The notes under the pieces were generated by a model. That model was not told the DNA's origin. It searched no databases and saw only the letters and a program-made list of their open reading frames with translations. This document shows, piece by piece, positions 695 to 10,894 of a stretch of DNA of 10,894 nucleotides; positions within the stretch are counted from its first letter, which is position 1; every line of letters starts with the position of its first letter. Both the position numbers and the translations under genes were made by a program. The stretch is from a virus (taxonomy: Duplodnaviria > Heunggongvirae > Uroviricota > Caudoviricetes), in IMG/VR virus record IMGVR_UViG_2660238349_000010; one strand, 5' to 3'.

Positions 695-781
695 TGATGC
701 GCCGCGCGATAAATGCACTCTATCTTGTGCGATAAATGGCATCCACGCGGCGTTTCATTATTTGAAAAAGAATTACATTTC
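695..781. repeat. Putative transposable-phage right end (attR-like) with MuA-binding-site-like motifs
   Basis: Plus strand from 695 reads TGATGCGCCGCGCGATAAATGC... The first 22 bp match my recollection of the phage Mu right terminus (TGAAGCGGCGCACGAAAAACGC) at 17 of 22 positions. CGATAAATG occurs at 707-715 and again at 730-738, the second copy at almost the same distance from the end as the CGATAAATG block of Mu R2. A CGTTTCAT motif lies at 751-758. Comparison is from memory, not alignment. Confidence 0.5.
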
Positions 782-1345
782 AGGTTGCGTTATGACAGTC
801 CCAACAGGGTGGTAGCGGTAGATCGTTGACAGTCCAATATCATAGATAATTGCCAGCCGCTTTCTGTCATACCCTTTCTGGAGCAATCTTGCGATCTGCT
901 CATGCTGCTCCTTCGTCAGTTTCGGGCGACGTCCTCCAACTCTTCCTTGTGCTCGCGCAGCAGCCAGTCCTGCCAGCGTGCGCTCAACTATCAGTTCACG
1001 CTCCATTTCTGCCAGTGCACCCATCATATGAAAAAAGAACCTTCCCATCGGAGTGCTGGTATCGATTGAATCCGTCAGACTGCGAAAATTGACACCTTTT
1101 GCGCGTAGCTCTTCTGTGAGAGCAATGAGGTGTTTCATTCTTCTACCCAACCGATCCAGCTTCCAGACCACCAATGTATCCCCTCTTTTAAGGCACTTTA
1201 AAGCGCGTTTCAGGCCTGGTCGTTCCGACTTGGTTCCGCTCATTTTGTCCTCAAAAATCTGTTCACATCCTGCGCACATTAATGCATTGCGTTGCAAATC
1301 TGTGTTTTGGTCATTTGTTGACACACGTATGTAGCCAATCAGCAT
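773..1345 (-). CDS. pin: Serine recombinase, DNA invertase (Pin/Gin/Hin/Cin family)
   Basis: 190-aa product from ATG (minus) at 1345-1343, preceded by AGGGAG. N-terminus MLIGYIRVSTNDQNTDLQRNAL... with catalytic-serine motif, and C-terminal HTH region ...ELIVERTLAGLAAARAQGRVGGRRPKLT... typical of Hin/Gin invertases. The ORF-track extension to 1474 is rejected because the conserved invertase N-terminus starts at 1345 and the extension would run through the crossover site. Confidence 0.9.
   Translation of the reverse strand: MLIGYIRVSTNDQNTDLQRNALMCAGCEQIFEDKMSGTKSERPGLKRALKCLKRGDTLVVWKLDRLGRRMKHLIALTEELRAKGVNFRSLTDSIDTSTPMGRFFFHMMGALAEMERELIVERTLAGLAAARAQGRVGGRRPKLTKEQHEQIARLLQKGYDRKRLAIIYDIGLSTIYRYHPVGTVITQPEM
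1250..1335. promoter_or_regulatory. Putative Fis-dependent recombinational enhancer inside the 5' end of the invertase gene (position inferred by analogy)
   Basis: In Hin/Gin systems the enhancer lies in the first ~100 bp of the invertase coding sequence. The corresponding pin segment (sense: GTGTCAACAAATGACCAAAACACAGATTTGCAACGCAATGC) closely resembles what I recall of the hin enhancer region. Fis sites were not individually identified. Confidence 0.3.
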
Positions 1346-1399
1346 TAAAAATACTCCCTTTTGAGTGGTTAAAGTACTGAGATAATGTGGGGAGGATTT

Positions 1400-1425
1400 G
1401 AGAGATAAACGTTGGTTTGGGGGAA
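1400..1425 (+). other. Crossover site 1 (hix/gix-like, 12-bp half-sites around a 2-bp TT core), orientation +
   Basis: GAGAGATAAACG TT GGTTTGGGGGAA. Lies about 55 bp upstream of the pin start and exactly at the 5' boundary of cassette C. The right half-site is identical to that of site 3 on the opposite strand. Confidence 0.6.
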
Positions 1426-1920
1426 GGCTCTGCACTGCCTGTTGGTGTGCCTGTTCCATGGCCCACCGCCACACCGCCAGCAGGCTGGTTAAAGTGCGAC
1501 GGGCGCGCCTTTACAAAAGAACAATATCCTGTTCTGGCCAGAGTCTACCCGACCCTCCGTCTTCCCGATTTGCGCGGTGAGTTTATCCGTGGATGGGACG
1601 ACGGGCGCAAAGTTGATACGGGGCGTTCATTGCTAAGTGGTCAGGCTGCAACATTTATTCGTACAGCTTTGCAGGATTATTACGGTTACGATCTGAATAC
1701 TAATGTCAAAGTAGGTATCGCTTTTGCTACTGCTGATTCTGTTATAACCGTTGGAAACCCAGCTAATCCTAAAGCAGGAAATAATAGCGATTATGTTCCT
1801 GCATCAGCAGATAACTCTATAACGGGTATTCAAAGGACAGCGGAGGATAATTTTACCGGGGCATGGATATCAATGCGCCCCCGCAATGTTGCGTTTAATT
1901 ACATCGTAAGGGCCGCATAA
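1414..1920 (+). CDS. Silent alternative tail-fibre C-terminal cassette C (collar-domain tip); no start codon of its own, promoterless in this orientation
   Basis: Open frame from the site-1 core to TAA at 1918-1920 encoding GLGEGSALPVGVPVPWPTATPPAGWLKCDG...RPRNVAFNYIVRAA. The first ~70 aa and last ~14 aa are shared with the expressed fibre tip; the middle is divergent. Confidence 0.75.
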   Translation, partial: GLGEGSALPVGVPVPWPTATPPAGWLKCDGRAFTKEQYPVLARVYPTLRLPDLRGEFIRGWDDGRKVDTGRSLLSGQAATFIRTALQDYYGYDLNTNVKVGIAFATADSVITVGNPANPKAGNNSDYVPASADNSITGIQRTAEDNFTGAWISMRPRNVAFNYIVRAA

Positions 1921-1939
1921 AAACGTTGGTTTAGGAGAA
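1914..1939 (+). other. Crossover site 2 (hix/gix-like), orientation + (direct relative to site 1, inverted relative to site 3)
   Basis: CGCATAAAAACG TT GGTTTAGGAGAA. Overlaps the stop codon of cassette C and is the 5' boundary of cassette B. Confidence 0.55.
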
Positions 1940-2443
1940 GGCTCGGCGCTACCCGTTGGTGTGCCTGTTCCGTGGCCCACCGCCACACCGCCAGCAGGCT
2001 GGTTACAGTGCAACGGAGCTACGTTCACTAAAGAACAATATCCTGTTCTGGCCAGAGTCTACCCGACCCTCCGTCTTCCCGATTTACGCGGTGAGTTTAT
2101 CCGTGGATGGGACGACGGGCGCAAAGTTGATACAGGACGTAAGTTGCTGTCCGCACAAGGGGCAACGCTGTTAAGAACAGCAATGCTGGATTATTATAAC
2201 CAGGACACTACGGGAACCTCGGGGATAGTCGGCATGGGATTCAACAATGAAGATTCCATTACAGACCTTCGTGAGGGCAGCTTTAAAATGCCGGACGGGA
2301 CAACATTCAGCGATCCTGTCGTGGCAATGTCAGACAATGGTATGCAGGCTACTATTCTGACCTCTATCAGAAGCGGGTATGCGAAGGGTATCACTGTCAG
2401 ACCCCGTAGCATTGCACTTAATTACATTGTGAGGGCAGTTTAA
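1928..2443 (+). CDS. Silent alternative tail-fibre C-terminal cassette B (collar-domain tip), translationally coupled to the downstream tfa
   Basis: Open frame from the site-2 core encoding GLGEGSALPVGVPVPWPTATPPAGWLQCNGATF...RPRSIALNYIVRAV. Its TAA at 2441-2443 overlaps the tfa ATG at 2443 by 1 nt (TAATG). Its first ~200 bp are nearly identical to the reverse complement of 3330-3541. Confidence 0.75.
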   Translation, partial: GLGEGSALPVGVPVPWPTATPPAGWLQCNGATFTKEQYPVLARVYPTLRLPDLRGEFIRGWDDGRKVDTGRKLLSAQGATLLRTAMLDYYNQDTTGTSGIVGMGFNNEDSITDLREGSFKMPDGTTFSDPVVAMSDNGMQATILTSIRSGYAKGITVRPRSIALNYIVRAV

Positions 2444-3057
2444 TGAGTAACACTGCAGTTCTGGATGAAAACGGTATCGCCACTGTAGCGGGCGAGATCA
2501 CTGTATATCACTATGACGAGGAAACCCGGGAATACACCTCATCCTCTGTGGAGTATCTCGCCCTTGGGGTGGGTACTCCGGCACATTCGTGCGCCGATGC
2601 ACCGCCGGAGGCAATTTCGGGTTACGTGGTTTGCCGGACTGCCACGCTGAACGGGTGGGAGCATGTGCCTGATCACCGCGGCGAGACGGTATACAGCACG
2701 GAGAACGGTAACCCCGTTCTGATTACCCAACCGGGTGATTACCCGGCGGACACCACCACAAAACAGCCGGCCACGCCATGGGATACCTGGAACGGTGAGG
2801 CGTGGGTAACCGATACTGAACGGCAGCGAGCCGCAGAACTGGAGGTTGCCAGACAGCAACGCCAGCAACGGGTGAAACAGGCGATGGCGTCCGTCGATCT
2901 TATCAACCTCAAACTGCGTGCTGGTCGCAGTCTGACACCAGAAGAAACGGCAAAACTGAACGCCGTGCTGGATTATATCGACGAGCTGAACGCACTGGAT
3001 ATCAGCACGGCACCTGAAATCAGCTGGCCGGAAGCGCCACTGGCACTTGCCAGCTGA
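2443..3057 (+). CDS. tfa: Tail fibre assembly protein (Tfa/gpG/U-like chaperone), cognate to cassette B
   Basis: 204-aa ORF immediately after cassette B with stop/start overlap. Size, position and acidic C-terminal region (…LNAVLDYIDELNALD…) fit the tail-fibre-assembly family. Converges on the fibre gene, stop to stop, with a 6-bp gap. Confidence 0.7.
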   Translation: MSNTAVLDENGIATVAGEITVYHYDEETREYTSSSVEYLALGVGTPAHSCADAPPEAISGYVVCRTATLNGWEHVPDHRGETVYSTENGNPVLITQPGDYPADTTTKQPATPWDTWNGEAWVTDTERQRAAELEVARQQRQQRVKQAMASVDLINLKLRAGRSLTPEETAKLNAVLDYIDELNALDISTAPEISWPEAPLALAS

Positions 3058-3063
3058 ACGGTA

Positions 3064-4656
3064 TCACGCCGCCCTCACGATATAGTTAAACGCGATATTG
3101 CGGGGGCGGGTTATGTTAAAGAATGCTCCGTTTAATTCGGCTTTTGCGCGACTGTTTGTTCCACCCAGAATTGCGTACCACAAATAATCGCTACGGTAAT
3201 TCCCCGCAAACACCTTATCGCCGCCATAGTCAATATTATTTCCGTTACTCATGTACGAGATATCCAGCGAAGAATCGTTATCGTCATGACCGCCGACCAG
3301 TGTACCTTTCTGCCATGAAAGCAACTTACGCCCCTCGTCAATCTTGCGCCCGTCGTCCCATCCACGGATAAACTCACCGCGTAAATCGGGAAGACGGAGG
3401 GTCGGGTAGACTCTGGCCAGAACAGGATATTGTTCTTTGGTGAACGTAGCTCCGTTGCACTGTAACCAGCCTGCTGGCGGTGTGGCGGTGGGCCACGGAA
3501 CAGGCACACCAACAGGCAATGCAGAGCCTTCCCCCAAACCAAGGTAATTGAGGACATCTTTTATACTGCCCTTAGCGATAATAGCGCGACCAATAGCTGT
3601 AAGGGTTGCCAGCGCTGCGCGGTCTGCTCCGGTAAAATAAGGCAACCGATCTGCTGCAGTGGCAAGTCCTGCCAGAGCAGTGAGCGTGGCATCTGCCGGT
3701 TGTTTTCCGTTTGCCAGATCGTATGCAGCCTTGACCGCTTTCGGTGTGGCGGCCAGTATTTCAGACGTGCTGTTGATGGCACTGCTCAATTGTATGGTGC
3801 CTTTTGCCGTCAGCGAGGCAGCAGGCACTCCCGTTATCTGACTCCACGGGTGAGTGTGGCTGACGGGCGCCTTGCCGGCTGCAAGGTCGTATGCAGCCTT
3901 GACCGCCTTCGGCGTGGCAGCCTCAGTTTCTGATTGACTGTCCGTGGCGCTGCTCAGTTGTACGGTGCCTTTTGCCGTCAGCGAGGCAGCAGGCACTCCC
4001 GTTATCTGACTCCACGGGTGAGTGTGGCTGACGGGGGCCTTGCCGGCAGCCAGGTCATATGCAGCCTTGACGGCCTTTGGTGTGGCGGCCAGCGTTTCAG
4101 AGGTGCTGTTGGTGGCACTGCTCAGTTGTACGATCCCTTTACGGGTCGTTGTTGCATCCTGGGCTGTGTATTTTCCCCGGGCCAGATCATACGCGATTTT
4201 CACAGCCTTCGGCGTGGCAGCCTCAGTTTCTGATTGACTGTCCGTGGCACTGCTCAGCTGTACGGTGCCTTTTGCCGTCAGCGAGGCAGCAGGCACTCCC
4301 GTTATCTGACTCCACGGGTGAGTGTGACTGACGGGTGCCTTGCCGGCTGCAAGGTCGTATGCAGCCTTGACGGCTTTTGGTGTGGCGGCCAGCGTTTCAG
4401 AGGTGCTGTTGGTGGCACTGCTCAGTTGGGTGAACCCCTTAGCTGTCAGTGTCGCGTCCGGGTGGTTACGGGAACGTACGTGTTCAGCCAGTGACTGTGC
4501 GGCTTCCTCCGTTTTTTTCTTCAGCCATTTCGTCCTGTTTGCCAGTTGCCGGGGGGCTCGATTTGATATCCCGTCAGCACCACCCAGAACCGGATCTGAT
4601 GTCTCCAGTTGATAGATTTTTTCTTCCCACTTTTCTGTTTCATTCAGGTTTCCCAT
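3064..4656 (-). CDS. Tail fibre protein (P2 gpH-like N-terminus and shaft repeats; collar-domain C-terminal tip = cassette A currently fused)
   Basis: 530 aa from ATG (minus) at 4656-4654; the ORF track starts 2 codons earlier at TTG 4662. Overlaps the gpI stop. Five copies of the motif TAKGxxQLSSATxSxSETxAATPKAVKxAYDLAxGK, and ...KQPADATLTALAGLATAADRLPYFTG..., recalled as characteristic of P2 H. C-terminal 159 aa after site 3 form the variable tip. Confidence 0.9.
   Translation of the reverse strand: MGNLNETEKWEEKIYQLETSDPVLGGADGISNRAPRQLANRTKWLKKKTEEAAQSLAEHVRSRNHPDATLTAKGFTQLSSATNSTSETLAATPKAVKAAYDLAAGKAPVSHTHPWSQITGVPAASLTAKGTVQLSSATDSQSETEAATPKAVKIAYDLARGKYTAQDATTTRKGIVQLSSATNSTSETLAATPKAVKAAYDLAAGKAPVSHTHPWSQITGVPAASLTAKGTVQLSSATDSQSETEAATPKAVKAAYDLAAGKAPVSHTHPWSQITGVPAASLTAKGTIQLSSAINSTSEILAATPKAVKAAYDLANGKQPADATLTALAGLATAADRLPYFTGADRAALATLTAIGRAIIAKGSIKDVLNYLGLGEGSALPVGVPVPWPTATPPAGWLQCNGATFTKEQYPVLARVYPTLRLPDLRGEFIRGWDDGRKIDEGRKLLSWQKGTLVGGHDDNDSSLDISYMSNGNNIDYGGDKVFAGNYRSDYLWYAILGGTNSRAKAELNGAFFNITRPRNIAFNYIVRAA
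3529..3554 (-). other. Crossover site 3 (hix/gix-like) inside the fibre gene at the constant/variable junction
   Basis: Minus strand reads TCCTCAATTACC TT GGTTTGGGGGAA, encoding LNYLGLGE. The core TT sits in the same codon positions as in sites 1 and 2, so either inversion gives an in-frame fusion. Confidence 0.6.
3700..4450 (-). repeat. In-frame coding tandem repeats of the fibre shaft (units of 36/56/44/56/56 aa)
   Basis: Near-identical DNA blocks, for example about 3900-4030 versus 4200-4330 (about 130 bp with about 3 mismatches, 300 bp apart). Visible in the ORF track as a repeating plus-strand shadow ORF (MTVRG[A/T]AQLYGAFCRQRGSRHSRYLTPRVSV...) at 3934 and 4234. Confidence 0.85.
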
Positions 4657-4658
4657 AA

Positions 4659-5237
4659 TCAACTGCTCCCGTGGTTATAACTGCCATCATGGATGGCGGT
4701 ATTGTTATAGCGAATGGCCACAGACTGATACTCCAGGCTGGCCAGATGGCAGCGGGCCGGTGCAAATGCAGCGAGCGTCTGACGCAGCATCGCGGCCTGA
4801 TCGTTAGTAATGGGCTGTTTCAGAATAACGCGATAAACCGCCCAGGCGGCTGCATCTCCATGAACAAACAGTCCGTTATAGCTGCGATTGCCGTCGTAAC
4901 TGAGACGACCTGTGCCTTCAATCAGATCCACTTCACCAAAGCCAAAACGGCGGATAACTTCCCGGATTGACCACGGCGTCCCTTTATACCGGTGTAGTTC
5001 GATGGCTGCTTTTATAAGCATGCGGCGAACATCGTCCGATTCCGCCAGCTCCCAGCCATCGCCAGACAGTGAGAACTGCTCGCCCAGCCATGGCAGCGCA
5101 GAACTGTCGACGATATCGACGAGAAAGACCATCAGTACGCTCAGGTCGATGTTATCCAGCCGCCCTGCCAGTCTTCCCAGCGTCCTGAGACTGATATCAC
5201 CCTCAAGCGGTGGCGGGAGTTGTAATGGCTCAGTCAT
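4659..5237 (-). CDS. Baseplate/tail protein gpI-like (Mu gp48 position)
   Basis: 192 aa from ATG at 5237-5235 (ORF track starts at GTG 5249). The ATG overlaps the gpJ-like stop (ATGACTGA). Position between the J-like gene and the fibre gene matches P2 I and Mu gp48. Family call from synteny and size. Confidence 0.7.
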   Translation of the reverse strand: MTEPLQLPPPLEGDISLRTLGRLAGRLDNIDLSVLMVFLVDIVDSSALPWLGEQFSLSGDGWELAESDDVRRMLIKAAIELHRYKGTPWSIREVIRRFGFGEVDLIEGTGRLSYDGNRSYNGLFVHGDAAAWAVYRVILKQPITNDQAAMLRQTLAAFAPARCHLASLEYQSVAIRYNNTAIHDGSYNHGSS

Positions 5238-8691: not shown

Positions 8692-9575
8692 CACACACTC
8701 CTCGTCAGTATTCTGGCGGCCATTGCACTTAATCCCGGAGACATGCGGTTGAATGCTGTTCCGACGGCGTTAAGCTGCCCGGAAACGGTATCCAGAGCAC
8801 CTGCAATATTTCTTTTGTCCACACCACTCAGCGCAGACTGTGCCTGCTGTACATACGTGGCTGCTTCGCTGGCTGTTCTGGCCAGACTGATGGCATCGGG
8901 CATGGATTCAGAGAGTGCGTTAAACGCCGGAACACTTTTCCCCAGAGCCCCGGAGATATTACCCAGTCCGCTCATCAGCCCCGGCACACGGGTCAGTGCG
9001 ACAACGGGGTTATCCTTCATTTTCTGTGTCACTCGAACGGCGCTGATAGTGGTCTGGAGTACAGACTGCGCCTGTTTCGCATAGTTGACGCCGTTGCGGA
9101 TGAACTGCGCCATCCCGGAAGGTGAAGGAATGGCACCGGAGACCGCCCCGACACCCGGGAGCTTCGTGCGTATTGCCGGTGGTTGCAGAGGATTTTTCGG
9201 GTCACCGGTGTATTCCCGGAGAGACACGGTGGCACTGACAGCCAGCACGTTGCCGGTACTGTCAGTCTGCTCGCTGGTTGCAGTCACATCGGTAATCACG
9301 AACCAGCCGCGATAGTCACCGTTGCCGAAGACCAGCGCCAGTGCCTGATGGGCTTTCATGGCTGTTCGCAGTCTCGCCAGCTCCACATCGGGTACACAAT
9401 AATGCTGATGGAAAACCAGAGTTATCTGGATTTCGTCCAGCCTGTCGCCGACGAACTGCAGGCCAGGCTTACCCCCGATGCGGGCATGCTCCGCATAATC
9501 GACGCCGAACGTGGCCTCGAAGCCGTCCCAGTAGGTAATCAGCTCAAACTCAATATCACCCAGTACGGCAAACAT
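8691..9575 (-). CDS. Tail protein with gpU-like N-terminal domain plus ~160-aa Ala/Ser/Gly-rich C-terminal extension
   Basis: 294-aa ORF whose ATG overlaps the tape-measure stop (ATGA). N-terminal ~130 aa (LGDIEFEL...QFVG...GWFVITDV...LREY) fits the P2 gpU tail-formation pattern. It occupies the slot of Mu N, after the tape measure. Confidence 0.65.
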   Translation of the reverse strand: MFAVLGDIEFELITYWDGFEATFGVDYAEHARIGGKPGLQFVGDRLDEIQITLVFHQHYCVPDVELARLRTAMKAHQALALVFGNGDYRGWFVITDVTATSEQTDSTGNVLAVSATVSLREYTGDPKNPLQPPAIRTKLPGVGAVSGAIPSPSGMAQFIRNGVNYAKQAQSVLQTTISAVRVTQKMKDNPVVALTRVPGLMSGLGNISGALGKSVPAFNALSESMPDAISLARTASEAATYVQQAQSALSGVDKRNIAGALDTVSGQLNAVGTAFNRMSPGLSAMAARILTRSV

Positions 9576-10894
9576 CAGCGGTACTCCTTACGTTGTTTCT
9601 GAGCCAGCAGACGCTCCAGCATTTTTTCCAGCTCATGCAGACTCATATTCAGGGCACCAGTCAGTCCTGCAGGCGCTGTGGTTTCCCTGCCATTGAGGAA
9701 AAACTGAGGATTAAAGCTGACCTGGATACCACCAGACGTTCCACCGCCGGTTGCAGCTGCACCACGGCCTGAATATCCGGCAGCCAGGATTTCAGGCGAG
9801 GGGATACGGGGAACATCCGGTGTCATCTCATTTGCCAGACGTTGCCCTGGTAAAATCGATGCCCGGGTGGAGAGCGGAATAACGGGCATGGAAGACAAAC
9901 TATTGATTACGGCTCCGATCGCATTTTTAGCAGACGACATAAACCCATTGATATCGGGCAACGGCATACTGAAGCGAACACCTGAAGTGTTATCCCGTAT
10001 TTCTGGCCCCTGAATGCTCACGGGCATTCTGGGGAGCAGTTCACTGGCCATTCGCTGCCCGGCCAGAGCTGCAAGCGGAGTGGTCCGCTGCAGGCCAATG
10101 GCGGCCCCCTGCGCGATATTGTCACCAAAGCCCATAAACACGCGGCTCGGCGAATGAATGCCCAGCTTTTCGCTGAACCAGCCACTGATGCTGTCACCCA
10201 TTCCGGTTACACTGGATTTGAGCGACTCCCATTTGTTTTTGATACCGTTAATCAGACCGTCGACAAGATGGCCACCGAAGTCGGTGAACTTTGCCGGCAG
10301 ATCAACACCAAGATATTTCAGCGCAGCTGCAAAGGCTTTATAGAGCAGACCTGCCGGCGACCAGTTAATCAGCAGCTTACCAGTTCCCGCGATACCGCCG
10401 TTAAAGGCTTCCTGAATGTCAGCCCAGCACTGTTTAAACCAGCTACTGATGCTGTCACCCATTCCGGTTACACTGGATTTGAGCGACCCCCATTTGTTTT
10501 TGATACCGTTAATCAGACCGTCGATAAGATGGCCACCGAAGTCGGTGAACTTTGCCGGCAGAGCAACGCCGAAATATTTCAGCGCAGCCGCAAAGGCTTT
10601 ATAGAGCAGGCCTGCCGGCGACCAGTTAATCAGCAACTTACCAATTCCCACAATGCCGCCGTTAAAGGCTTCCTGAATGTCAGCCCAGCGCTGTTTAAAC
10701 CAGCTACTGATGCTGTCACCCATTCCGGTTACACTGGATTTGAGCGACCCCCATTTGATTTTGATACCGTTAATCAGACCGTCGATAAGATGGCCACCGA
10801 AGTCGGTGAACTTTGCCGGCAGAGCAACGCCGAAATATTTCAGCGCAGCCGCAAAGGCTTTATAGAGCAGGCCTGCCGGCGACCAGTTAATCAG
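9575..10894 (-). CDS. Tail tape measure protein, 3' part (5' end lies beyond the window)
   Basis: Long minus-strand frame open to the window edge, directly upstream of the gpU/X/D genes. Contains 87-aa tandem repeats and a Gly/Ala-rich C-terminal region. Assignment rests on synteny and repeat architecture. Confidence 0.7.
   Translation of the reverse strand: MINWSPAGLLYKAFAAALKYFGVALPAKFTDFGGHLIDGLINGIKIKWGSLKSSVTGMGDSISSWFKQRWADIQEAFNGGIVGIGKLLINWSPAGLLYKAFAAALKYFGVALPAKFTDFGGHLIDGLINGIKNKWGSLKSSVTGMGDSISSWFKQCWADIQEAFNGGIAGTGKLLINWSPAGLLYKAFAAALKYLGVDLPAKFTDFGGHLVDGLINGIKNKWESLKSSVTGMGDSISGWFSEKLGIHSPSRVFMGFGDNIAQGAAIGLQRTTPLAALAGQRMASELLPRMPVSIQGPEIRDNTSGVRFSMPLPDINGFMSSAKNAIGAVINSLSSMPVIPLSTRASILPGQRLANEMTPDVPRIPSPEILAAGYSGRGAAATGGGTSGGIQVSFNPQFFLNGRETTAPAGLTGALNMSLHELEKMLERLLAQKQRKEYR
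10174..10894 (-). repeat. 261-bp (87-aa) in-frame tandem repeat array within the tape-measure gene, truncated by the window end
   Basis: Units at about 10174-10434, 10435-10695 and 10696-10894+ with only a few substitutions. Seen in the ORF track as plus-strand shadow ORFs at 10158, 10416 and 10677, all containing ...LNQ[L/P]LMLSPIPVTLDLSD... Confidence 0.85.

Follow-up and report, generated by a model that had tools for sequence, protein, structure and literature searches.

Three alternative fibre tips and a single tail-fibre assembly gene in the invertible host-range switch of a Mu/BcepMu-like prophage

The stretch of DNA analysed here, which will be called the window, comprises 10,894 nucleotides (nt) of a Caudoviricetes record (IMG/VR IMGVR_UViG_2660238349_000010) and holds an invertible host-range switch. 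This switch lies at the right end of a Mu/BcepMu-like Escherichia coli prophage, the same element as Phi2 of E. coli EC958, a strain of sequence type 131 (ST131). In it, three alternative tail-fibre tips (A, B, and C) share the locus with only one tail-fibre assembly gene (tfa). An earlier note on this DNA had drawn attention to this disproportion, and had considered that the tfa belonging to tip A might have been deleted, leaving the prophage locked and fibre-defective. The disproportion is borne out by the present analysis, and so is the statement that tip A has no tfa downstream, but the option of a deletion is not. The single tfa is a normal, long-conserved design of the family of collar-tip cassettes and not a lesion, and the locus is probably best explained as a multiple-inversion switch of the Min/Pin type in which one Tfa would serve every tip.

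A three-site fibre switch with four isomers

The features that make up the switch are the following, in positions of the window:

773–1345, minus strand: serine DNA invertase of the Gin/Cin/Pin/Min family, 190 amino acids (aa), with Pfam matches to Resolvase and HTH_7
1400–1425, plus strand: outermost crossover site, GAGAGATAAACG TT GGTTTGGGGGAA, identical to Phi2_3prime (PMC4134206 Table 3)
1414–1920, plus strand: tip cassette C, silent, a free cassette (Collar open reading frame (ORF) 1417–1920, E 6.6e-16)
1914–1939, plus strand: middle crossover site, CCGCATAAAAACG TT GGTTTAGGAGAA
1928–2443, plus strand: tip cassette B, silent (Collar ORF 1961–2443, E 3.7e-15)
2443–3057, plus strand: tfa, 204 aa (Caudo_TAP, PF02413)
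3064–3540, minus strand: tip A, presently fused to the fibre and convergent on tfa (Collar, E 3.5e-15)
3529–3554, minus strand: crossover site inside the fibre gene, TCCTCAATTACC TT GGTTTGGGGGAA, its left half identical to Phi2_5prime (PMC4134206)
3543–4662, minus strand: constant part of the fibre gene (Phage_fiber_2 repeats, E 1e-93)

The window contains exactly one tfa. The search was carried out with a hidden Markov model (HMM) built from nine Tfa proteins and covered every open stretch of 40 aa or more in the six frames. Pfam gives the same picture, with Caudo_TAP found once and Collar (PF07484) in all three tips. The product of tfa matches Caudo_TAP with an E-value of 3.5e-28 (98.8 bits versus a cut-off of 22.1), and homologues 95–99% identical to it, which carry PF28596 together with PF02413, are present in a Salmonella Typhi prophage and in P1-like plasmids; no match to Tfa was found among PDB sequences. 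The minus-strand ORFs within 2443–3064 (2539–2868 and 2739–2912) are not tfa-like, in agreement with the earlier note, which had seen no second tfa there. As that note had also described, and as can be read in the sequence, the stop codon of tfa (3055–3057) converges on the stop codon of the fibre gene behind tip A (3064–3066), with a spacer of 6 nt (ACGGTA). At its other end, tfa is joined to cassette B, the stop of which overlaps the tfa start (TAATG), and this B-tfa pair is kept in L012, L013, and L016. A reading of TGATACCGTT, which flanks tip A on its 3' side, as the half crossover site left by an old deletion or quasi-site event was rejected, because the equivalent flanks in L009 and L017 are unlike a half-site.

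Cassette C is made up of a collar, a head, and a C-terminal strand. The nearest solved homologue of the tips is the tip of T4 gp37 (2XGF), to which tip A is homologous with an E-value of 1e-13, the collar and the C-terminal motif NIAFNYIVR being aligned. An AlphaFold2 model of the tip A monomer is confident only in the collar (mean predicted local distance difference test score 55, head below 50) and is too poor for a fold search.

The enzyme expected to exchange these tips is encoded next to them by an intact ORF. It holds a catalytic N-terminus (Resolvase, PF00239, E 8e-51) and a C-terminal helix-turn-helix domain (HTH_7, PF02796, E 1e-12), and it aligns with Gin of phage Mu (PDB 3UJ3/4M6F) over residues 2–182 with an E-value of approximately 1e-93. 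Its counterpart in the full prophage L001 is annotated as a 573-nt recombinase. All three crossover sites are 26 bp long and of the Gin type, with a TT core, and lie in inverted orientation at the segment borders. The Phi2 sites have been set beside the consensus of Mu, P1, e14, and p15B (PMC4134206), and the right half of the middle site, GGTTTAGGAGAA, is seen joined to the constant-side left half in EC958. The 5' ends of the two silent cassettes are inverted repeats of the fibre gene, one of 229 nt (93% identical) and the other of 226 nt (90%), and a crossover site stands at the start of each repeat; the joints that recombination would create between the constant part and B or C are both in frame. 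The locus belongs to the Din-family inversion systems, and its three sites make it one of the Min (multiple inversion) type.

The site in the fibre gene faces both cassette sites and can invert with either of them, and after the larger inversion the two inner sites can invert further. Enumeration of these events gives four isomers, and all four occur in near-identical E. coli prophages (L001, L004, L002, and L003):

Isomer 1: const-A / <tfa <B <C (the window and L001)
Isomer 2: const-B tfa> / <A <C (L004)
Isomer 3: const-C> B> tfa> / <A (L002; the arrangement is also found in L016)
Isomer 4: const-C> A> / <tfa <B (L003)

The segment B-tfa-A inverts as one rigid unit and C is a free cassette, which is the fused tip in L002 and L003. 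Since there is no crossover site within B-tfa-A, tip A never has tfa downstream. The further statement that cassette C likewise lacks a tfa in its operon, and that only the B fusion carries one, does not hold, because in isomer 3 the constant part, C, B, and tfa follow one another on one strand.

Inversion of this element has been demonstrated, as PacBio reads of EC958 contain the Phi2 segment in both orientations (PMC4134206), and EC958 itself is found among the genomes that match the const-B-tfa junction. The junction queries were designed so that only the corresponding isomer would reach at least 80% coverage. They matched approximately 266 E. coli genomes for const-A, approximately 326 for const-B-tfa, and 77 for const-C, the first two figures being upper bounds (by at most 77 each) because pieces lying on the same strand can join in isomer 4 and isomer 3, respectively. 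The record of phage PhiKM, which is partial and broken inside the fibre gene, gives no virion-level evidence on orientation.

The one-tfa layout in relatives

The unit formed by a tip, an overlapping tfa, and a convergent tip 5–6 nt past the tfa stop recurs in several backgrounds. A further Mu-like prophage of E. coli, which carries six or seven tips (L009), contains it, and so do a prophage of Salmonella Typhi whose baseplate is of another kind (L012), P1-like plasmids (L013–L015), and a Salmonella P1-like plasmid that holds around ten cassettes and one tfa (L017). These loci, together with others from IMG/VR, share the order tips> tfa> <tips with exactly one tfa and 2 to 10 tips. As far as layout is concerned, this recurrence is what the earlier note had itself named as speaking against its suspicion of a defect. 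The junction between the tfa stop and the tip stop has been retained even though the Tfas concerned are only 72% and 57% identical to that of the window, and it is common to three phage backbones; because it is shared by lineages that far apart, it must be old and maintained.

Mu-like and P1-like phages exchange the block as a unit. Cut exactly at the outer sites, the block of the window (1409–3542) is 99.5% identical to a block on the P1-like IncY plasmid pAVS0973-B (L016, 3501–5634).

The generality of the layout was assessed with a survey of 80 IMG/VR viral loci, which was seeded by the tip instead of tfa and in which three loci are cut by a contig end. One tfa accompanied by at least two collar tips is present in 17 of the 80 loci and a single tip with tfa in 12, while 44 hold two convergent tfa genes with a second tip that is not of the collar type or lies off the contig. 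Among the 77 informative loci, none lacks tfa. A fused tip can be recognised in 14 of the one-tfa arrays from IMG/VR, and tfa lies downstream of it in 7 and not downstream in the other 7. A scan of genome contigs with a single Tfa protein had returned just one short locus, and IMG/VR scans with alignments were used instead.

Two further arrangements were observed in the course of this comparison. On one IMG/VR contig (L135, 7025–10531), two collar arrays with one tfa each follow one another in tandem (E> T> F< T< T> F> T< I>), and in Enterobacter hormaechei (L006/L007, 6897–9232) an element of the IS66 family lies in the fibre region, adjoining a two-tfa invertible segment, where it probably inactivates the fibre gene.

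Specificity and supply of Tfa

According to the mechanism that is favoured here, the Gin-like invertase recombines the three 26-bp sites, one in the fibre gene and two oppositely oriented ahead of B and C, and inversion fuses one of the three tips to the fibre gene. Tfa would act on what all tips have in common, the homogenised collar together with the C-terminal strand, and would ignore the variable head, so that one copy could serve every tip. In isomers 2 and 3 its gene would share a transcript with the fibre, and in isomers 1 and 4 it would be transcribed independently of the late operon.

The first element of this proposal, a Tfa indifferent to the head, was addressed by comparing 125 distinct tip-tfa pairs in which tfa immediately follows the tip. 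In 200 pairwise comparisons, the Tfa N-domains are at least 90% identical and the adjoining heads less than 35% identical, and over the set the identity of the Tfa N-domain follows that of the collar (rho 0.50) more than that of the head (rho 0.17). As near-identical Tfa N-domains adjoin unrelated heads, Tfa would be specific to a class of tips and not to a single head. Within each array, the first 66 tip residues are 89–95% identical and the last 14 are 79–97% identical, with heads at about 20%, and loci with an alternative tip of another fold class have a second tfa. The folding of T4 gp37 requires gp38, for which the Tfa of lambda can substitute, so a perfectly matched head is not needed. 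Taken together, these comparisons of sequences lean towards a Tfa that is shared and head-agnostic. A special "generalist" C-terminal domain in the Tfas of one-tfa arrays was also considered and rejected, as the same type of C-domain is common in two-tfa loci.

The heads themselves are under purifying selection, with ratios of nonsynonymous to synonymous substitution rates (dN/dS) of 0.04–0.17. The head of tip A is 75% identical to that of an A-like free cassette in L009 (dN 0.17, dS saturated), and its dN/dS against an A-like head from Enterobacter is 0.17; the lowest value, 0.04, was obtained for a head that is convergent in L009 but belongs to a free cassette in L017. Homologous heads are thus found at convergent, free, and tfa-adjacent spots in different phages, which indicates that one head family fits all three positions. 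In the head region, the A-like tips of other phages are 47–68% identical to tip A, compared with 19–22% when A is set against B or C.

Within the locus, the 5' parts of the three tips that encode the collar (1414–1640, 1928–2150, and 3317–3540) are homogenised (89–96% aa identity, dS 0.2–0.3), while the same head types are borne in other phages on collars just approximately 76% identical. This homogenisation extends far past the 26 bp required by the invertase and looks like concerted evolution. No clear difference in collar homogenisation was detected between one-tfa and two-tfa arrays.

Several observations weigh against a Tfa that is shared by all tips and expressed in every isomer. In 4 of the 80 surveyed loci, two tfa genes are accompanied by collar tips on both sides, and the A-like heads of Erwinia, Enterobacter, and Serratia have their own tfa directly downstream. 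Mu Tfa has been described in a review (PMC9608196) as binding the distal fibre through its N-domain and staying on the virion, and by analogy a specificity for the head would be predicted. With respect to expression, isomers 1 and 4 place tfa antisense to the late operon, and a sigma-70 scan revealed no plus-strand promoter for it. The position weight matrix score of the cassette upstream of tfa (8.95) is not enriched relative to the other cassettes (8.90) or to shuffled sequences (7.98 ± 1.59). The following candidate was found between the start of the invertase gene and the outer site:

1378–1386, plus strand: candidate extended -10, TGAGATAAT, reading into the invertible block

In 47 spacers between invertase and site, no inward -10 scores higher than this candidate, which is, however, neither conserved in other one-tfa arrays nor detected by the sigma-70 scan, and which may be a mere mirror of the invertase's own -10. 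Late promoters that depend on an activator would elude the promoter scans used.

In a rival explanation, judged possible although unlikely, Tfa works only when its gene lies downstream of the expressed tip. Tfa would then be needed by B or would be an optional cap or co-adhesin, and neither tip A nor, in isomer 4, tip C would require it for folding and function. Around half of the natural one-tfa arrays in which the fused tip can be recognised do lack tfa in cis (7 of 14 IMG/VR contigs and approximately 40% of the E. coli carriers), which, like the missing promoter, fits this explanation, as does the co-inheritance of B with a tfa to which it is translationally coupled by the TAATG overlap. 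On the other hand, at least one tfa is always kept by the informative collar-tip loci of the survey, and head families that occupy convergent or free positions have, in other phages, a tfa of their own immediately behind them. For A-like heads this is seen in Erwinia, Enterobacter, and Serratia, which makes the type of head no predictor of chaperone independence. The pairing of near-identical Tfa N-domains with unrelated heads likewise argues against it. In arrays of 8–10 tips, moreover, expression of tfa in cis would have to cross kilobases of untranslated cassettes, and for this reason supply in cis alone cannot account for the retention of the gene. The same consideration favours an independent expression of tfa, and transcription independent of the late operon would be the expected source of Tfa in isomers 1 and 4.

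How a shared Tfa would be supplied, or not supplied, in these two isomers can be phrased as two readings that must both be regarded as doubtful. In the first one, tfa always faces a fixed flank and would be read either from the late operon (isomers 2 and 3) or from the putative inward promoter TGAGATAAT by the invertase gene (isomers 1 and 4). If true, an inward promoter would be a simple route to orientation independence for one gene inside an invertible block. In the second one, Tfa would be absent in isomers 1 and 4, and capped and uncapped fibres would differ in receptor use, in which case the four isomers would correspond to four phenotypes (A, B with Tfa, C with Tfa, and C without Tfa).

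It is improbable that the A state borrows Tfa from other resident prophages. The E. coli genomes that match the region do contain a median of 3–4 matching places, and many of them have additional modules of collar tips and tfa, which are carried by P1-like plasmids and P2-like prophages. Nevertheless, the phage must also succeed in new hosts devoid of helper prophages, its architecture is retained on several unrelated backbones and hosts, and there is no sign that a helper tfa is expressed at the right time. The deletion of an A-cognate tfa, with A-state prophages left fibre-defective or locked, is hardly credible: the tfa borne by A-like heads in Erwinia, Enterobacter, and Serratia makes it plausible that an ancestor had paired tip and tfa on both sides, but all four isomers are seen, inversion is demonstrated with an intact invertase ORF, the one-tfa junction is common to three backbones and to lineages with Tfas 57–72% identical, the head of tip A shows dN/dS of at most 0.17 against its relatives, and tip A is fused in approximately 266 genomes. 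A Min/Pin-type switch in which one Tfa serves every tip is therefore retained as the probable explanation.

The element and its inversion have already been published, and the one-tfa property is family-wide and apparently little discussed. The switch is ordinary and widespread, being present in hundreds of E. coli genomes, ST131 included, and the one-tfa layout of the collar-tip cassette family is not to be taken as damage to a prophage. Exactly one Tfa is retained in each of more than 20 arrays, whose tips number 2 to 10, and around half of the natural copies have tfa antisense to the fibre operon. This sharpens the question of whether Tfa chaperones recognise the conserved collar and not the receptor-binding head, which bears on efforts to engineer the host range of phages and tailocins, as these usually presuppose the need for a matching chaperone.

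The prophage and known systems compared

The minus-strand tail genes of the window run from the tape measure (9575–10723) through to the fibre gene (3064–4662, 532 aa), beyond which tfa (2443–3057), cassette B (1928–2443), and cassette C (1414–1920) lie on the plus strand, followed by the minus-strand invertase gene (773–1345). The remaining features belong to the end of the prophage and its host:

1–660: host gene yccA, left of the prophage (Pfam Bax1-I)
695–772: right end of the transposable Mu/BcepMu-like prophage, where the sequence common to five genomes sets in

In five E. coli genomes with unrelated flanks, the common sequence starts at TGATGCGCC, and the insertion point varies by genome (adjoining kefF, inside yehY, adjoining gspL, and, in the window, adjoining yccA). 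The full prophage L001 carries head genes of the Mu type (a DUF935 portal and proteins like Mu F and Mu G) and a tail module of the types T-U-X-D-V-W-J-I-H, and a related isolate is classed by NCBI under Bcepmuvirus. Near the right end, a GCGATAAATG(C/G)CA motif is repeated at approximately 708–722 and 737–750 and resembles the transposase end-binding sites of a Mu/BcepMu-like phage.

Two genes of the window contain internal repeats. Phage_fiber_2 repeats of 168/300 nt lie within the constant part of the fibre gene (3712–4462), and the fibre measures 532, 543, 640, or 664 aa among otherwise near-identical prophages, which suggests variation in repeat copy number. The tape-measure gene holds a 261-nt tandem repeat (10176–10894; 2.8 copies, 96% identity) that extends past the end of the window.

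The closest known system is Phi2 of EC958, which has identical crossover sites, imperfect inverted repeats of 227–229 nt, and Phage_fiber_2 repeats fused to Collar tips, and which differs in having been assembled with tip B fused, in contrast to tip A in the window. The legend given for it is a generic one, in which mirror-image alleles each have their cognate minor fibre gene, and the single one of Phi2 is unmentioned (PMC4134206; Forde et al. 2014). The Min system of p15B and the Pin-type systems of Shigella also work with more than two crossover sites, so that their invertible segments overlap and one fibre gene can be given several alternative 3' ends; the window differs from p15B Min in its three sites and four isomers and in being part of a Mu-like transposable prophage. 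The block of the window is itself found on a P1-like IncY plasmid, and such plasmids can also have as many as 10 collar cassettes in an array with a single tfa. By analogy with these P1-like relatives, p15B may have a single tfa as well.

The G segment of Mu, the C segment of P1, and the P segment of e14 each consist of two mirror-image tip-tfa pairs. They share with the window an invertase of the Gin family, 26-bp sites, the in-frame exchange of the fibre C-terminus, and an invertase gene adjoining the segment, but the window lacks the two convergent tfa genes and has one tfa, three tips, and three sites. The tip of Mu S is not homologous to the collar-type tips, and Mu S matches the shaft repeats only.

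In T4 gp37, the collar sequence and the C-terminal NIAFNYIVR are homologous to those of the window, the tips of which are far shorter (approximately 70–80 aa from collar to C-terminal strand), have no long needle, and are exchanged by inversion. Related collar tips occur in xenorhabdicin, a tailocin of Xenorhabdus (P0092 is 56% identical to tip A), which differs from the window in being a tailocin and not a phage, and in having no invertase gene within the locus. Its fibre-tip segments are inverted between sister strains, and the same alternative, that the tips share a chaperone or can do without one, has recently been posed for them (PMC13280938, 2026).

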